Source: a virus
Taxonomy: Duplodnaviria; Heunggongvirae; Uroviricota; Caudoviricetes
IMG/VR virus record: IMGVR_UViG_2541047119_000019
Span: 1-6,593 of that record
DNA: 6,593 nt
Direction: 5' to 3' (one strand)
Each line of letters begins with the position of its first letter. The stretch's first letter is position 1. A program made the translations under genes and the position numbers. Positions 1 to 6,593 of the stretch are shown one piece after another. A model generated the notes under the pieces. That model ran no database searches and was not told the origin of the DNA. It saw only the letters and a list, made by a program, of their open reading frames with translations.

Positions 1-299
1 GTTACCTCACAGCTGATACTGAGGGTTTCCGGGTCCTCTGCGAGCGATTCTGGCTGTTCGGCAGCTGCATCGAGAGTCACAGGAAGTAGCTGGGGGCTCT
101 CTGAAGAAGGTAATAGCAGCTTTCCCTCGCGCCATTGTTGTCGCCATTTGAACAACAGATTGGCGTTAATGCCATTTTCAAGAGCAAGTTTTGAGATGGA
201 TATCCCGGGTTCACAGGAGGCAGCAACGAGCTGCTGTTTAAATTCGGGAGGATAATTAGGGCAGCCTTTTCGCCTGCCGGGAGTCACATTTTTCTGCAT
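1..299 (-). CDS. IS-type transposase OrfA/TnpA, helix-turn-helix (HTH_Tnp_1 / PF01527-like), N-terminal ~99 aa; 3' end outside window
   Basis: Manual minus-strand translation from ATG (plus 299-297) gives MQKNVTPGRRKGCPNYPPEFKQQLVAASCEPGISISKLALENGINANLLFKWRQQWREGKLLLPSSESPQLLPVTLDAAAEQPESLAEDPETLSISCEV with no stop to position 1. The PEFK...GxSxxxLAxxxGI...LxxWRxQ pattern is typical of IS3/IS66 OrfA HTH proteins. It is absent from the ORF track because it has no stop inside the window. Confidence 0.7.
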   Translation of the reverse strand, partial: MQKNVTPGRRKGCPNYPPEFKQQLVAASCEPGISISKLALENGINANLLFKWRQQWREGKLLLPSSESPQLLPVTLDAAAEQPESLAEDPETLSISCEV

Positions 300-391
300 A
301 TCTGATACTTTGGTTCCCACTACTTATTTGGTGGGCACCACTTTGTCTAATTCGTCAGATTCTGACCAGACGGTTCAGGCTGTACGCTTAC
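1..391 (-). mobile_element. Terminal part of an insertion sequence (IS66-family-like), partial; body continues beyond window start
   Basis: The minus strand of 385-391 reads GTAAGCG, the motif I recall as the start of IS66-family terminal inverted repeats. It lies 92 bp upstream of the minus-strand transposase start at 299. The other end and any target duplication are outside the window, so the boundary is inferred. Confidence 0.5.
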
Positions 392-411
392 TTTTTAAGG
401 AAGGTAAATAC

Positions 412-972
412 ATGCTGATTGGCTATATACGCGTATCAACAAATGACCAGAACACCGGTTTACAAAGAAATGCGCTGGAATGTGCAGGATGTGAGCAGAT
501 TTTTGAAGACAAAATGAGTGGTAAAACGACACAGCGGCCGGGACTGAAGCGGGCACTGAAGAAACTAAAACCCGGTGACACGCTGATGGTCTGGAAACTG
601 GACAGGCTGGGGCGCAGTATGCGCCACCTTGTTGCGCTGACAGATGAATTACAGCAACAGGGGATAAATTTTCGTAGTCTTACTGACAACATTGATACGT
701 CAACCCCCATGGGGCGCTTCTTTTTTCACATAATGGGTGCGCTGGCAGAAATGGAGCGTGAATTAATTGTCGAACGGACACGGGCTGGTCTTGCAGCTGC
801 CCGTGAAAGGGGACGAACCGGCGGCAGACCCCGCCGTCTCACGCAGGAACAATACGAGCAGGTCGGGCGTTTACTGGCCGGGGGTGTCAGTCGAAGACAG
901 GTGGCACTTATTTTTGATATCGGTCTTTCAACCCTTTATCGTTATTATCCTGCGAGCGTTTCGGAAAAATAA
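412..972 (+). CDS. Serine-recombinase DNA invertase, Gin/Pin/Cin/Hin (Din) family
   Basis: From ATG 412 the product begins MLIGYIRVSTNDQNTGLQRNALECAGCEQIFEDK..., with the catalytic Ser in RVSTNDQ, the WKLDRLGRS and GINFRSLTD...MGRFFFH...ALAEMERELIVERT blocks, and a C-terminal HTH (GVSRRQVALIFDIGLSTLYRY). This is near-colinear with my recollection of Gin/Pin. SD AAGGAAGG at 397-404 sits 7 nt before the ATG. The track start at TTG 310 is rejected. Confidence 0.93.
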   Translation: MLIGYIRVSTNDQNTGLQRNALECAGCEQIFEDKMSGKTTQRPGLKRALKKLKPGDTLMVWKLDRLGRSMRHLVALTDELQQQGINFRSLTDNIDTSTPMGRFFFHIMGALAEMERELIVERTRAGLAAARERGRTGGRPRRLTQEQYEQVGRLLAGGVSRRQVALIFDIGLSTLYRYYPASVSEK

Positions 973-1071
973 GACGCTCTCTTTGTTGGGCCTTTACTGA
1001 ATTAACGCAAAATGGCGTTTATCGGTCTGTGGATATGATAATTCAGTTTATTCAGGAACAGGCTGATTATT

Positions 1072-3111
1072 ATGACGTCCAAATGGGTTCAACTATCATC
1101 AATGCCCGGAAACTTTACTGTTAAAGTTTCCGGTGGTACAGCGGCATTTCTTGAGGCTCCCTTTCCTCCGGCCGAAACAAAAGGAGGAATGACATTTGCT
1201 GACTGTCTCATCAGTTTTAATACACGGGATTGCCTGTGGGTAAGGCCAGTATCCGGTGATCCGAGTGTGGAAATTACCGGAGCGGGTATTGGTGCGGTCA
1301 TTCCGTTAAGTGCTGATGTTGCCGGTACTGCTGAACCGTCAGACTGGGATAATGCTGAAACACATACCCGTCCGTCAGGAAATGAAACTGCTTCCAGCTC
1401 CCCTTCCTGGTATTACGTGGTGGTTCTTGCTGGTCAGTCAAACGGTATGGCTTACGGTGAAGGTCTGCCACTGCCGGAGACATATGACCGCCCCGAACCG
1501 CGTATTATGCAGTTAGCCCGTCGCAGTACAGTCACGCCGGGAGGTAAAGCCTGTCAGTATAACGACATCATTCTGGCCGACCACTGTCTGCATGATGTGC
1601 AGGATATGAGTGGAAAAAATCACCCGAAAGCGGATGTGGCTAAAGGGCAATATGGCACCGTGGGTCAGGGGCTTCACATTGCCAAAAAACTGCTGCCGTT
1701 TATTCCGGCAGATGCGGGGATTCTGCTGGTTCCCTGCTGCCGTGGTGGTTCTGCATTCACGGCGGGTGCTGACGGCACGTACAGTGACAGCACGGGTGCT
1801 TCAGAGGACTCAGCCCGCTGGGGTGTGGATAAGCCGCTGTATAAGGACTTAATCAGCCGGACAAAAGCGGCACTGGCGAAGAACCCGAAAAACCGCCTGC
1901 TTGCTGTGGTGTGGATGCAGGGCGAGTTTGATATTGATGCGAAGCCGACGGAGCATTCTGCGCTGTTTCTGGCGATGGTGGAAAAATTCCGCGCAGACCT
2001 GGCTGAACAGGCGGAACAGTGTACCGGTGGCAGTGCTGCTGGCGTTCCGTGGATTTGTGGCGATACCACGTATTTCTGGAAACAGAAAAATGAACCAGCA
2101 TACCAGGCAATCTATGGCGGCTACAAAAACAAAACAGATAAAAACATTCATTTCGTTCCATTAATGACAGATGAAAATGGCGTGAATGTACCCACCAACA
2201 ATCCGGCAGAAGACCCGGATATTGAATCCATTGGTTATTACGGCTCAACGTGGCGTAACAGTGCCGCTACCTGGACATCTGCGGACCGGGCCAGCCATTT
2301 CAGTGCCTGGGCGCGCCGGGGTATTATTTCTGACCGTCTGGCCACGGCTGTTCTGACTCATGCAGGGCGAACCACAGTAAAAGCCGATGTTCCATCTTCT
2401 GAAACTGAAGCACCAGTGCCGTCACCTTCAGAAACTGAAGCAGTAACCACAACACTGCTGTCTTACCGTGTCAGTGAGTCAGAAGGAAATCTGAAAGCCC
2501 AGGGCTGGGAGCCGGCTGGCGGTAAAGCTGAAATTATCAGTGATGCAGGAGGCACAGGTGGTAAGGCAATGAAACTGACCAAGGAAACAGGTAAATCATC
2601 CTGGTATCTGGATCATGATGCCGGTACTGGTGCTGAACTGCTGAAAAATGGTGGTTTAATCAGTTGTCGTTTTAAAGTACCTGGCGACCTGGTGGCAAAC
2701 CAGTATGTCATGGCGCTTTACTGGCCGGTTTCCTCTCTGCCGCAGGGTGTCACCCTGACAGGGGATGCAGGGAATAATCTGCTGGCATCGTTCTACATCC
2801 AGACAGACGCAAAAGACCTGAATGTGATGTACCACAATGCAAAAGTGGCAACAAATAACCAGAAACTGGGAACCTTTGGTGCATTTGATAATGAATGGCA
2901 TACGCTGGCCTTCCGTTTTGCAGGAAATAACAGCCTTCAGGTTATTCCGGTTATTGATGGTCAGGATGGTGCCGCGTTTACCCTGACGCAGTCACCAGTA
3001 GGAACTTTCCCGGTGGACAAACTCCGCGTAACGGATATCACCAAAAATGCAACTTACCCGGTGCTGATTGACAGCATTGTGGTGGAAGTGAAAAAAGCGG
3101 TAACAGAATAA
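1072..3111 (+). CDS. SASA/SGNH-family carbohydrate esterase (sialate O-acetylesterase-like, resembling prophage NanS-p), with Pro/Ser/Thr/Glu linker and C-terminal putative carbohydrate-binding domain
   Basis: 679-aa ORF. It carries the YYVVVLAGQSNGMAYGEG block (GQSN catalytic-serine motif of sialate O-acetylesterase / DUF303-type SGNH hydrolases), then CRGGS and VVWMQGEFD blocks. A repetitive SSETEAPVPSPSETEA linker separates a ~220-aa C-terminal domain. Start choice (ATG 1072 versus internal ATG 1102) is uncertain. Confidence 0.78.
   Translation: MTSKWVQLSSMPGNFTVKVSGGTAAFLEAPFPPAETKGGMTFADCLISFNTRDCLWVRPVSGDPSVEITGAGIGAVIPLSADVAGTAEPSDWDNAETHTRPSGNETASSSPSWYYVVVLAGQSNGMAYGEGLPLPETYDRPEPRIMQLARRSTVTPGGKACQYNDIILADHCLHDVQDMSGKNHPKADVAKGQYGTVGQGLHIAKKLLPFIPADAGILLVPCCRGGSAFTAGADGTYSDSTGASEDSARWGVDKPLYKDLISRTKAALAKNPKNRLLAVVWMQGEFDIDAKPTEHSALFLAMVEKFRADLAEQAEQCTGGSAAGVPWICGDTTYFWKQKNEPAYQAIYGGYKNKTDKNIHFVPLMTDENGVNVPTNNPAEDPDIESIGYYGSTWRNSAATWTSADRASHFSAWARRGIISDRLATAVLTHAGRTTVKADVPSSETEAPVPSPSETEAVTTTLLSYRVSESEGNLKAQGWEPAGGKAEIISDAGGTGGKAMKLTKETGKSSWYLDHDAGTGAELLKNGGLISCRFKVPGDLVANQYVMALYWPVSSLPQGVTLTGDAGNNLLASFYIQTDAKDLNVMYHNAKVATNNQKLGTFGAFDNEWHTLAFRFAGNNSLQVIPVIDGQDGAAFTLTQSPVGTFPVDKLRVTDITKNATYPVLIDSIVVEVKKAVTE
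2398..2442 (+). repeat. Short in-frame tandem-like direct repeat (TCTGAAACTGAAGCA / TCAGAAACTGAAGCA, 30-bp period) encoding the SETEA linker
   Basis: Two 15-bp copies at 2398-2412 and 2428-2442, 14/15 identical, read directly from the sequence inside the esterase ORF. Confidence 0.85.
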
Positions 3112-3117
3112 AAAAAT

Positions 3118-3144
3118 CCCGCCGGTCATGATATGGCTGGCGGG
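3118..3144. terminator. GC-rich hairpin just after the esterase stop; possible terminator, orientation ambiguous
   Basis: CCCGCCGG (3118-3125), 11-nt loop, CTGGCGGG (3137-3144): 8 bp with one G-U pair. An A6 run precedes it, which would be a U-tract on the minus strand. No U-tract follows on the plus strand. Confidence 0.35.
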
Positions 3145-3257
3145 AGCTACCTAACCCATAAAGGAAAATAAAAATACTCCCGAAGGAGTGGTTATCAGTC
3201 GCTTCGATGTTTTTACCCGATAACGAATTATGTAGTCAATATCAAAGGTAAGGTTAT

Positions 3258-3440
3258 ATGACATTCGTTCATACAATGCTGCTTTATTTCTGCGCTGTGG
3301 TCAGTGCGTTATATCTGGTGAGCGGCGGTTATAAGGTCATCAGAAATTATATTCGCCGTAAAATTGATGATGCGGCAGCTGAAAAACTCAGTAAAACAGC
3401 ACAGGCACCGTCATCCCCAAACGACCCGACCCCGCTCTGA
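3258..3440 (+). CDS. Small hypothetical membrane protein (60 aa, one predicted N-terminal TM helix followed by a basic segment)
   Basis: ATG 3258 is preceded by AAGGTAAGG (3245-3253). The hydrophobic stretch TMLLYFCAVVSALYLVSGGY is followed by KVIRNYIRRK. No family recognised. Confidence 0.55.
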   Translation: MTFVHTMLLYFCAVVSALYLVSGGYKVIRNYIRRKIDDAAAEKLSKTAQAPSSPNDPTPL

Positions 3441-3475
3441 TAACGGGGCAATATACCTGCAAAAGGAGAATATTC

Positions 3476-3721
3476 ATGCCAGAGATTAAAGGCACGGTTA
3501 CTGAAGAGCTTGTCAAACAGGCACTTTATTCTGAAGAAGTGAACCGCGTGCTGAAGGCGCAGGTTCGCAAGGATTTTGAGGCACAAATCGACGCATATGT
3601 TGATGAAGTGCTGGCCCGAATGGTTGGCCGTTCTCCGGCTGAAAACAGCACGGAAAATGATCCTCAACCCGTAGAGCAACCAGAGCCGGTTCAGCCCGGA
3701 ACTGACGGTACTATGATGTAA
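3476..3721 (+). CDS. Small hypothetical acidic protein (81 aa), predicted helical N-terminal half and Pro/Glu-rich tail
   Basis: ATG 3476 is preceded by a strong SD AAGGAG (3463-3468, 7-nt spacing). It lies 35 bp after the previous small ORF, suggesting a two-gene unit. No family recognised. Confidence 0.6.
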   Translation: MPEIKGTVTEELVKQALYSEEVNRVLKAQVRKDFEAQIDAYVDEVLARMVGRSPAENSTENDPQPVEQPEPVQPGTDGTMM

Positions 3722-3730
3722 CAATACCGA

Positions 3731-3750
3731 CCGGCAGGTTTCCCTGCCGG
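3731..3750 (+). terminator. Candidate intrinsic terminator after the small-ORF pair
   Basis: Perfect 8-bp stem CCGGCAGG / CCTGCCGG with 4-nt loop TTTC, followed by the T-rich GTGAGTTTGTTAATG. Confidence 0.5.
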
Positions 3751-4076
3751 GTGAGTTTGTTAATGCACGTTTTGTGTATTTTCCCTCCTGGGAGAACAGG
3801 CAGGACATATCAGCATCCTGAAACAGGAAGCATTTTTGGGTTTGTATGTCTTGCCATTTTGAGATCGAGAACGGCGATAGATGAGCTGTAAGGGAGTCTT
3901 ACAGGCAGGGCAAACAGGCTCTTTCATCCATGATAAAGATCTCCTTTTTATGCATCTCTGCTTTACAGGAGACTGGGGAATATCATAGGATACGCCACGA
4001 GCTCGAAGTAAAGCATTGATGCAAAATTGTCTAAATCGGCCCAGAATAGTTCGCGCTATCTGGGTCGCTCTTTATG

Positions 4077-4112
4077 TATGTAGTATCCCATTGATTTGAA
4101 ACATACTACATA
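4077..4112. promoter_or_regulatory. Perfect 10-bp inverted repeat (TATGTAGTAT-N16-ATACTACATA); candidate operator or structured element
   Basis: Arms at 4077-4086 and 4103-4112 are exact reverse complements, in the AT-rich non-coding region upstream of com-mom. Confidence 0.3.
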
Positions 4113-4147
4113 TACGCGCGATCCTACCTTCACTATATAAAAAGTCA

Positions 4148-4165
4148 ATAAAATGATCATTTTAT
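4148..4165. promoter_or_regulatory. 18-bp perfect palindrome centred on a Dam site (ATAAAATGATCATTTTAT); candidate methylation-sensitive regulator binding site
   Basis: Read directly; a second GATC lies 11 bp away at 4166-4169 and another at 4120-4123. Confidence 0.35.
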
Positions 4166-4272
4166 GATCGTTTTCACCACCTAACTCTTCGTTTTCTTTA
4201 AGTAAATAATCACCTACCTGAATCATTGTTGATGACTTTTCAATCTATTTGTTGTATCAATTAAACAAATCG

Positions 4273-4297
4273 AATCGATCGTTTTTGTCGATCGATT
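4273..4297. promoter_or_regulatory. Inverted repeat AATCGATCG-N7-CGATCGATT with a GATC in each arm, 44 bp upstream of the com start; candidate operator / Dam-sensitive site
   Basis: Arms at 4273-4281 and 4289-4297 are exact reverse complements, with GATC at 4277-4280 and 4290-4293. Confidence 0.35.
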
Positions 4298-4340
4298 GCA
4301 TGAGAAAGGCATCAACAACAAAGCAGGAGGTTATGCGGCC

Positions 4341-4541
4341 ATGTATCGAAACATACGGTGCCGACACTGCAATAAGCTACTGGCACGGGCCAGTTTCAGT
4401 TATCTGGAAGTAAAATGTCCGCGCTGTAAAACCCTCAATCAAATCACATCTCCGAGCGCCACAGAGCACCCCACATACACAAGGAAATCCTGTCGTGGGG
4501 AACAGAAAGCAAGTCACATCCCGAATCATCAGCACGCCTGA
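4341..4541 (+). CDS. com: Com-like zinc-finger translational activator (phage Mu Com homologue)
   Basis: From ATG 4341 (SD AGGAGG 4324-4329) the 66-aa product is [34 protein letters not shown]...EHPT.... The two CxxC pairs and the IRC..CNKLL...CPRCK...EHPT pattern match my recollection of Mu Com. Its 3' end overlaps the next ORF out of frame, as com overlaps mom in Mu. The track start at TTG 4296 is rejected. Confidence 0.82.
4469..4500 (+). promoter_or_regulatory. mRNA stem-loop sequestering the predicted mom SD and GUG start (translation-inhibition-structure-like)
   Basis: CCCCAC (4469-4474) pairs with GTGGGG (4495-4500); the GTG is the predicted mom start. The 20-nt loop contains AAGGA (4481-4485). 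This is analogous to the Mu mom TIS that Com binding relieves. Confidence 0.5.
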
Positions 4542-5232
4542 ACTTATTCGCTATAACGACAATATCGTTGGTTATGGCTCCCGTGAGTTGCGGGTTGAGA
4601 CAATAAGTTGCTGGCTGGCCAGACTGGTCATCGTCAATAAACATTACAGCCACCGTTTCGTAAATAACTCCTACCTTCATCTGGGCATATTTTCAGAACG
4701 GGAACTTGTTGGCGTAATGCAATGGGGTTACGCCCTTAACCCAAACAGTGGTGCACGCGTCGTAACGGGTACGCAGAACCGAGAATATATGGAGCTTAAC
4801 CGGCTATGGCTGCATGACTGTATGCCGAGAAACTCCGAATCAAGGGCAATCAGTTACGCGCTCAAGCTAATCAGGCAGCTTTATCCGCAGGTACAGTGGG
4901 TTCAGTCGTTTGCAGATGAGCGTTGTGGCTGTCTTGGTGTCGTGTATCAGGCAAGCAATTTTGATTATGTAGGCAGCCATGAATCAATATTCTATGAACT
5001 TGATGGCGAGTGGTATCACGAGATTTGCAGGAATGCCATTAAACGAGGCGGACAACGAGGTGAACATCTGAGGGCTAATATTGACAGAGCCAATGTTCAT
5101 AAGTTCCGACAGTTTCGTTACATCCGGTTTCTGAACAAGAGGGCCAAAAAACGCCTCAACACAAAGCTATTCAAAGTCCAGCCTTACCCAAAACCACAAA
5201 CAGTTAAAACTGGTTTGAAAGAGAGTGAATGA
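4495..5232 (+). CDS. mom: Mom-like DNA modification protein (phage Mu Mom homologue; adenine N6-methylcarbamoyl/acetamido modification, anti-restriction)
   Basis: 245-aa ORF immediately downstream of and overlapping the com-like gene (4495-4541) in another frame. GTG 4495 is the first start codon after the frame opens at 4414, with AAGGA 9 nt upstream. Size is close to Mu Mom. The call rests mainly on synteny with the clearly Com-like gene; the Mom sequence was not matched from memory. Confidence 0.75.
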
Positions 5233-5263
5233 GCGCTTAAAAACTCATTCTAAAACTCAAAAG

Positions 5264-5308
5264 AAAAGCGCCGATTTAGTATCAAATAAGTTGCGTATCG
5301 GCGTTTTT
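5264..5308. terminator. A-tract / hairpin / T-tract element after mom; candidate bidirectional terminator or IS-end structure
   Basis: AAAAGCGCCGAT (5264-5275) pairs with ATCGGCGTTTTT (5297-5308), one G-U pair, around a long 21-nt loop. A second 7-bp hairpin GAATGAG/CTCATTC (5227-5250) spans the mom stop. Confidence 0.4.
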
Positions 5309-5411
5309 CAGCAGTATCAAATGAAATGCAAATCGGTATCAAAAAAATCGCCGCGCTATACTACAGGCATTTAAATTCCAGTTAAGACCAGGTGGTCAAC
5401 AGGAGCGTGAA

Positions 5412-6560
5412 ATGAGGCGCTTCGCAGGCGCATGTCGTTTCGTTTTCAATCGTGCTCTGGCGCTTCAGAATGAGAATCATGAGGCCGGTAATAAATACAT
5501 CCCTTACGGGAAAATGGCTTCCTGGCTGGTTGAGTGGAAAAACGCCACTGAAACGCAATGGCTTAAAGATGCCCCGTCACAGCCATTGCAACAGTCACTG
5601 AAAGAGCTTGAGCGGGCTTACAAAAACTTCTTCCGGAAGCGGGCTGCTTTTCCCCGATTCAAAAAGCGGGGACAGAATGATGCATTCCGCTACCCGCAGG
5701 GCGTTAAGCTCGATCAGGAAAACAGCCGTATTTTTCTGCCGAAACTTGGCTGGATGCGCTACCGGAACAGCCGTCAGGTCACGGGTGTTGTGAAAAATGT
5801 CACTGTCAGCCAGTCCTGCGGTAAGTGGTACATCAGTATTCAGACAGAAAGTGAAGTATCAACTCCGGTTCACCCTTCAGCATCAATGGTCGGACTGGAT
5901 GCTGGCGTGGCTAAACTCGCCACGCTGTCAGATGGCACAGTCTTTGGACCTGTAAACAGTTTTCAGAAAAACCAGAAGACGCTGGCGAGACTTCAGCGAC
6001 AGTTAAGCCGCAAGGTCAAATTCAGCAACAACTGGCAGAAGCAGAAACGCAAAATACAGCGACTGCATTCCTGTATCGCAAATATCCGCAGGGACTACCT
6101 TCACAAAGTCACAACGACCGTCAGCAAAAACCACGCAATGATAGTCATTGAGGATTTGAAGGTCAGCAACATGTCAAAGTCAGCAGCGGGTACGGTCAGC
6201 CAGCCGGGGCGCAATGTCCGGGCAAAATCAGGTTTAAACCGTTCGATACTGGATCAGGGCTGGTATGAAATGCGCCGCCAGCTTGAGTACAAGCAGCTCT
6301 GGCGTGGCGGTCAGGTGCTTGCTGTTCCGCCAGCGTACACAAGCCAGCGTTGCGCGTGCTGTGGTCATACAGCGAAAGAAAATCGCCTGTCACAAAGTAA
6401 ATTCAGATGCCAGGCATGTGGATATACAGCGAACGCTGATGTAAATGGCGCTCGTAACATTTTAGCGGCGGGGCACGCCGTTCTTGCCTGTGGGGAGATG
6501 GTGCAGTCAGGCCGCCCGTTGAAGCAGGAACCCACCGAAATGATTCAGGCGACAGCCTGA
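5412..6560 (+). CDS. tnpB: TnpB (OrfB) of an IS200/IS605-family element; RuvC-like RNA-guided endonuclease fold with zinc ribbon
   Basis: 382-aa ORF with SD AGGAG (5401-5405). RuvC-like motifs are present: VGLDAGV (D), IVIEDLKV (E) and [10 protein letters not shown] (D), plus zinc ribbon CACCGH...CQACGY. The in-frame upstream translation (ILQAFKFQLRPGGQQERE, 5358-5411) looks like the conserved TnpB N-terminus but has no ATG/GTG/TTG after the stop at 5322-5324. Confidence 0.9.
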
Positions 6561-6593
6561 ACGTAGCAGGGATCCTCGTCCTTCAGGGCTTGG

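Follow-up and report, generated by a model that had tools for sequence, protein, structure and literature searches.

Gene content of the window

The stretch analysed here (the window, 6593 bp in all) covers the right-hand end of an Sp18-type prophage, one of the Mu-like transposable prophages known from E. coli O157:H7 and from other STEC. From 392 to 5360 it is 99-100% identical to Sp18-type prophages that lack the insertion described below, and it has in common with them the gene order invertase, SASA/DUF6645, DUF1378, DUF826, com, mom (Table 1). Membership of the Mu-like group is indicated by the com-mom module at the right end and by variable chromosomal insertion sites, with 10 different right flanks among 10 loci. 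The chromosomal insertion site of the Sp18-type prophages of Sakai and other STEC differs from genome to genome, as expected for a transposable phage (PMC7430833).

Table 1. Features of the 6593-bp window.
Feature	Position	Strand	Basis or remark
ISEc8 (IS66 family) left end, cut by the window edge; the element continues leftwards past position 1	1-391	-	391/391 identity
ISEc8 tnpA, 5' part, 99 codons (accessory protein)	3-299	-	HTH_Tnp_1, PF01527, E=9e-13
ISEc8 IRL terminal inverted repeat (GTAAGCGTACAGC… on the minus strand)	363-391	-	aligned to the right end of the complete copy in L002
TTTTTAAG, native target bases; predicted 8-bp target-site duplication if simple insertion	392-399	.	native in 12/12 IS-free loci
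Leftover native 5' leader of the invertase gene	392-411	+	identical in 12/12 IS-free loci
Shine-Dalgarno (SD) AAGGAAGG of the invertase	397-404	+	
Serine DNA invertase	412-972	+	Resolvase + HTH_7
SASA/DUF6645 esterase-like protein, 679 aa	1072-3111	+	
Small DUF1378 and DUF826 genes	between the SASA/DUF6645 gene and com, within 1072-3721	+	
com	about 4341-4541 per relatives' annotation; longest ORF from 4296	+	Zn_ribbon_Com domain
mom	4495-5232	+	Mom domain
IS200/IS605-type element	5361-6593		homology to the prophage ends at about 5360

Unlike Mu, the Sp18-type prophage carries extra cargo between the invertase and com/mom, namely the genes for SASA (sialate O-acetylesterase) with DUF6645, for DUF1378 and for DUF826; in Mu this interval is empty. 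The SASA/DUF6645 protein may be esterase cargo of the NanS-p type. A DUF1737-SASA-DUF6645 paralogue adjoins the lysis genes of a lambdoid prophage in another of the genomes compared (L010). Upstream of com/mom, at 4139-4174, there is an AT-rich palindrome with two GATC sites (AAAAAGTCAATAAAATGATCATTTTATGATCGTTTT), reminiscent of the Dam-methylation-controlled region of the Mu mom promoter.

The right end of the prophage (…AATCGCCGCGCTATA, about 5360) adjoins an IS200/IS605-type element. In intact copies of this element (Logan contigs L014-L018, with a divergent Y1 tnpA), GTG AAA CGA stands upstream of CTACAGGCA and is likely the start of tnpB (MKRLQAFKFQLRPGG…). On this reading the prophage seems to have jumped into the very beginning of the tnpB coding sequence, within its first codons, and the window thus appears to hold three nested mobile elements, with ISEc8 inside a Mu-like prophage inside an IS605-type element. 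Two records of Stx-converting phages (LC727881.1 and LC727895.1), in which a "region of the inserted Bacteriophage Mu-like phage" is marked, carry the same invertase at 98.8-100% identity, so the Mu-like element also transposes into Stx prophages.

The left end of ISEc8 and its boundary

Comparison of the first 391 bases with known elements, as proposed in the preliminary description, gave a match to an IS terminus. More than 3000 E. coli genomes, EDL933 included, carry ISEc8 copies (annotated as "IS66-like element accessory protein TnpA") that agree with these bases at 391/391 positions, and the complete ISEc8 of E. coli O157:H7 C1-057 (NZ_CP035366.1; L002, 8283-10724) agrees at 389/391 (two mismatches). 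ISEc8 and IS629 are the predominant IS elements of O157 (PMC7430833). The minus-strand OrfA described earlier with its start at 299 is the ISEc8 tnpA; its ATG lies at 299-297, and the reading frame leaves the window at the left edge. In complete copies, identical sequence runs on into tnpB and the transposase gene; of the three-gene organisation tnpA-tnpB-tnpC expected of ISEc8, the window holds only the first 99 tnpA codons. The distance from the tnpA start to the terminus of the element is 92 nt both in the window and in L002.

The boundary could be fixed to the base. The complete L002 copy, which runs from GTAAGCGTACAGCG… to …GTACGCTTAC, and eight other copies end exactly at GTAAGCG…CGCTTAC and measure 2442 bp. 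Given these limits in complete copies, the ISEc8 of the window ends at base 391, in agreement with the IS66-like terminus read earlier from GTAAGCG on the minus strand of 385-391. This 5'-GTAAGCG start of the terminal inverted repeat is seen at the one end that lies within the window, and when the repeat was aligned to the right end of L002 its outer 13 nt (379-391) matched 13/13, followed by about 8 further matches up to position 28. BLAST matches to the prophage begin already at 391 because the C at this base is shared by chance between ISEc8 and the native sequence. With the terminus at 391, the SD sequence at 397-404 and the ATG at 412, the spacings estimated earlier (about 6 bp to the SD and about 20 bp to the ATG) hold, the exact values being 5 and 20 nt. 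As judged by a 391-nt perfect match together with a sharp break of homology at the IS terminus, rather than by a 7-mer, the junction between ISEc8 and the prophage is far beyond chance.

The insertion point and the native upstream region

The ancestral sequence upstream of the invertase was recovered by alignment with twelve IS-free loci (L001-L012). All twelve read …CACCTC-TTTTTAAG-GAAGGTAAATACATG (spelled to the start codon, …CACCTC TTTTTAAG GAAGGTAAATAC ATG), and they depart from the window to the left of 392. They also contain a gix-like palindrome, ATCCCGTAAACC-GA-GGTTTCAGGGAT (L001, 7942-7967), which occupies about 45-70 bp upstream of the ATG, with its centre at 67 bp, and which closely resembles gixR of Mu (TTTCCTGTAAACCGAGGTTTTAGATAA), located at a similar distance before gin. 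The partner crossover site lies in inverted orientation inside a tail-fibre gene, where the inverted homology begins exactly at AACC-TC-GGTTTACGGGA. The insertion point of ISEc8 corresponds to L001 8001/8002; on its upstream side the edge of the crossover site is 34 bp away, and on its downstream side the ATG follows after 20 bp. By this alignment, ISEc8 interrupts the 5' leader of the invertase gene and separates the crossover site from the ribosome-binding site. The IS-free relatives thereby bear out the earlier statement that the element lies where Gin/Pin/Cin systems keep a crossover site and the invertible segment.

Crossover sites flanking an invertible segment are present in all IS-free relatives. 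A tail-fibre segment of 1388 bp was found in opposite orientations in L003 (8553-9940) and L011 (8550-9937), with 99.8% identity when one is inverted, and its ends are imperfect inverted repeats of about 160 bp that start exactly at the crossover core. The two opposite orientations indicate that the segment inverts in nature in these relatives, and Sp18 has been described as having an invertible host-specificity region (Asadulghani et al., PMC2669165). In the window itself, a repeat scan gave no gix-like pair of crossover sites, and IS DNA fills the usual position.

A few ISEc8 targets resemble one another. A copy inserted in a terminase small-subunit gene (L027, 2583-2622 and 5060-5075) has the target …gacacctcaTTTTTTAA…, much like that of the window (…ccacctcTTTTTAAG…; window 392-399 with L001 7990-8009), although about 4 bases are missing at its left junction (…GTACGCTT|TTTTAAC), and the target in L020 has CACCTC 3 bp from the duplication. 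A minor possibility is that ISEc8 prefers targets such as CACCTC-T5-6-AA, with the reservation that the L027 copy came to light because it resembles the query, so that selection bias may play a part.

The DNA invertase

The invertase gene is intact. Its product of 186 aa has the same sequence as WP_000904930.1, a "recombinase family protein" in the annotation of both L001 and L002, and contains the domains PF00239 Resolvase (E=1e-51) and PF02796 HTH_7 (E=2e-14). It matches the structure of Gin (PDB 3UJ3) at E=2e-91 and shows 73% identity to Gin of Mu, with the Ser9 nucleophile present (MLIGYIRVS9TNDQ). Residues Gln151, Arg154 and Leu155 in helix 1 of Hin are uniquely conserved in Fis-dependent DNA invertases (McLean et al., PMC3798978), and the corresponding Q..RL motif is kept, EQVGRLLA of the invertase aligning to EQAGRLLA of Gin. 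Invertases of this group typically have a recombinational enhancer, with two Fis sites, close to the 5' end of their gene; here a scan for Fis-enhancer motifs gave one match to a degenerate consensus at +70, common to Mu gin, whereas the Mu match at +33 is not kept. Since the crossover sites are absent from the window, membership of the Fis-dependent invertases (Gin/Cin/Pin/Hin) can be certified for the enzyme only and not for the whole inversion system of this copy. The reading frame of the invertase is open back through the IS end (256-411) to a stop at 253-255, and the list of open reading frames gives a 220-aa frame from a TTG at 310; no SD or other support was found for such an extended 220-aa product.

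Transcription towards the invertase gene

All bases upstream of position -20 are IS DNA, while the coding sequence and the ribosome-binding site of the invertase are intact. The 20 native bases that remain upstream of the ATG are mostly SD sequence and leave no room in front of the SD for a -35/-10 promoter, so that, by this geometry alone, no native promoter can remain next to the invertase. On the other side of the junction, tnpA and the other ISEc8 genes read away from the invertase. A standard scan found no plus-strand sigma-70-like promoter facing the invertase at 200-411 or in the entire ISEc8, and the best match to a lenient PWM (GTCACA-17-TACTTT, 283-311) scored 7.0, within the background of random 171-nt windows (5.7, sd 2.0). 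The only plus-strand signal in the IS end was a terminator-like hairpin at 219-235. With a divergent tnpA, no promoter-like site facing the invertase and a best PWM score within background, the earlier proposal that invertase expression may depend on read-out from the IS was not sustained. Consensus and PWM scans for the native invertase promoter in the IS-free loci also gave nothing above background; as no site is recognised there either, a weak or cryptic promoter in the IS end lies beyond what such scans exclude. In gin/cin systems the promoter overlaps the crossover site. A TTTCCT-16-GATAAT pair in Mu overlaps gixR (PWM score 6.5) and is not conserved in the Sp18-type loci.

Expression of the invertase from ISEc8, through a cryptic outward promoter in its left end or a hybrid promoter formed at the junction, would place inversion under the control of the IS. 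Both kinds of promoter are well known from other IS families, and a promoter-trap survey of Paracoccus elements detected outward promoters in the IS3, IS5 and IS21 families and reported none for IS66 (PMC3281130); an IS66-family outward promoter was likewise not found in the literature searched. The open frame upstream to 256 is compatible with IS-driven expression, as are weak TAnnnT hexamers beside the ISEc8 terminus, for example TACGCT at 383-388 with CTGACC or TTCTGA upstream, but the PWM scores of the latter (4.0-4.2) fall below the background mean, and the empty promoter scans, the divergent tnpA and the hairpin at 219-235 all point the other way. Moreover, in a hypothetical plus-strand junction RNA (388-408), UUACUUUU, composed of the IS tip and a T-run, is predicted to pair with GAAGGUAA, a stretch that spans the SD. 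The 131-nt region folds with z = -3.25 relative to shuffled sequences, a value driven largely by a hairpin in the tnpA leader (311-340). On balance, we regard IS-driven expression of the invertase as unlikely.

Origin of the junction

The event that created the junction may have been a simple insertion, or an IS-mediated rearrangement such as an adjacent deletion or homologous recombination between ISEc8 copies, after which the upstream region would no longer adjoin the invertase. A rearrangement would have parted the crossover site, the invertible segment and perhaps much of the prophage from the invertase, and it fits the wording of the preliminary description, in which the native upstream region was "replaced". 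Among nine full-length ISEc8 copies sampled, six are simple insertions with perfect 8-bp duplications and three have unrelated flanks. The 8-bp flanks of these three (L023, L024 and L025, of which two lie on plasmids and one beside an IS911 remnant) imply IS-mediated rearrangement or recombination between copies. ISEc8-matching places number up to 46 per genome, with a median of 4. In favour of a rearrangement there is also the fact that the window stops inside ISEc8, with nothing to its left seen. Against it, the prophage part of the window (392 to about 5360) matches intact copies at 100% identity, which points to an event that took place recently in a prophage with no other damage. Judging from six versus three copies, a small sample, a simple insertion with duplicated TTTTTAAG is favoured about two to one over deletion or rearrangement mediated by the IS, and it is the most probable origin; rearrangement is possible but somewhat doubtful. 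Simple insertion, more likely than replacement, would merely move the upstream region 2442 bp away and leave the crossover site and the invertible segment intact. The window, which starts inside ISEc8, is itself compatible with either replacement or displacement of that region.

Searches for the junctions themselves were negative. Neither the junction, searched as an exact 42-mer and as a 33-mer, nor the reciprocal junction predicted for a simple insertion (…CACCTCTTTTTAAG|GTAAGCGTACAG…) had a match in genome contigs or metagenome contigs, and neither junction occurs in complete E. coli genomes (5426), phages, plasmids, species-representative genomes or metagenomes. In an assembly index searched by exact translation, contigs encoding the invertase were IS-free loci only, and those encoding the TnpB of the window were repeat contigs of 1.6-1.7 kb only. 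A genome designated H41, with 81% coverage of the window, proved not to contain it, as it carries a different ISEc8 insertion, in the SASA/DUF6645 gene. The lack of the junction in all collections searched could also mean an assembly artefact, that is, a chimeric join of the ISEc8 repeat to a prophage contig, and the window does start in one multi-copy repeat and end in another (the IS605-type tnpB), as is typical of the ends of short-read contigs. A misjoin inside a repeat, however, would not be expected to place the break of homology exactly at the biological terminus of the IS (…CGCTTAC, 391), and we consider an artefact extremely improbable.

Proposed consequences for the inversion system

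Taken together, our findings suggest that an E. coli prophage of the Mu-like Sp18 type received an ISEc8 by transposition into the 5' untranslated leader of its Gin-like invertase gene, oriented so that the genes of the IS read away from the invertase. The native promoter, whether at or near the crossover site or provided by read-through from the phage, would now lie at least 2.44 kb off across an antisense IS, or would have been lost. Because the promoter is displaced and no outward IS promoter was recognised, we infer that loss or strong reduction of invertase transcription is the likeliest outcome; transcription would probably be abolished or strongly reduced. The tail-fibre segment, which determines host range, would then stay fixed in a single orientation, barring the action in trans of a related Din-type invertase encoded elsewhere in the genome. 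If the insertion was a simple one, the crossover site and the invertible segment would be found just beyond the other end of ISEc8. As a whole, this explanation, an ISEc8 insertion in the invertase leader that silences the invertase and locks the tail-fibre switch, seems to us probable.

After a simple insertion, the invertase might nonetheless still be supplied, through a cryptic promoter in the IS or in trans. In that case the spacer between the right crossover site and the enhancer or gene would have grown from about 100 bp natively to about 2.5 kb, the position of the enhancer being assumed by analogy. In the Hin system the short native spacer restrains multiple subunit rotations, whereas long spacers take away this topological brake and permit processive recombination and knotting (PMC3798978). 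By analogy with Hin, the prophage would then hold a natural long-spacer invertasome with altered switching, an outcome that we consider very unlikely.

For annotation, it would be unsafe to assume that the invertase of this locus drives inversion, and the end of the contig inside ISEc8 conceals whether the remaining prophage is still attached. Beyond its source strain the case matters little; it is one example of prophage functions being eroded or frozen by IS elements in STEC-type E. coli, where IS insertion into prophage genes is routine.

Comparison with known systems

The components of the locus are already known and publicly annotated, namely ISEc8, the Sp18-type Mu-like prophage and the Gin-like invertase (WP_000904930.1). 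With the G segment and Gin of Mu, as with Cin of P1, Pin of e14 and Hin of Salmonella, the prophage shares a small serine recombinase. The resemblance to Mu extends in the IS-free copies to a crossover site (GTAAACC-GA-GGTTT) at about the same distance from the start codon as gixR and to invertible tail-fibre genes upstream, although the tail-fibre genes of the Sp18 type are unrelated to S and U of Mu (PMC2669165). The window copy differs from the Gin system of Mu in that no crossover site lies within its normal space, and from its Sp18-type relatives in having ISEc8 between the right crossover site and the invertase, a junction seen in 0 of 5426 complete E. coli genomes.

A close parallel is the ISEc8 of strain C1-057, where the same IS is found in the same prophage family and points the same way within the prophage. 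Flanked by a clean 8-bp duplication (TGTCGTTT), it leaves the invertase leader untouched and instead splits the SASA/DUF6645 gene, at a point 2.3 kb further downstream. The exact insertion site reported here, although absent from the 5426 complete genomes, is simply one more ISEc8 site, and the phenomenon is an ordinary one. It is the same as in promoter-displacing or polar IS insertions in general, in which an IS comes to lie between the promoter region and the ribosome-binding site of a gene with its own transcription directed away from that gene; what sets this case apart is only the site-specific recombination site within the displaced region.
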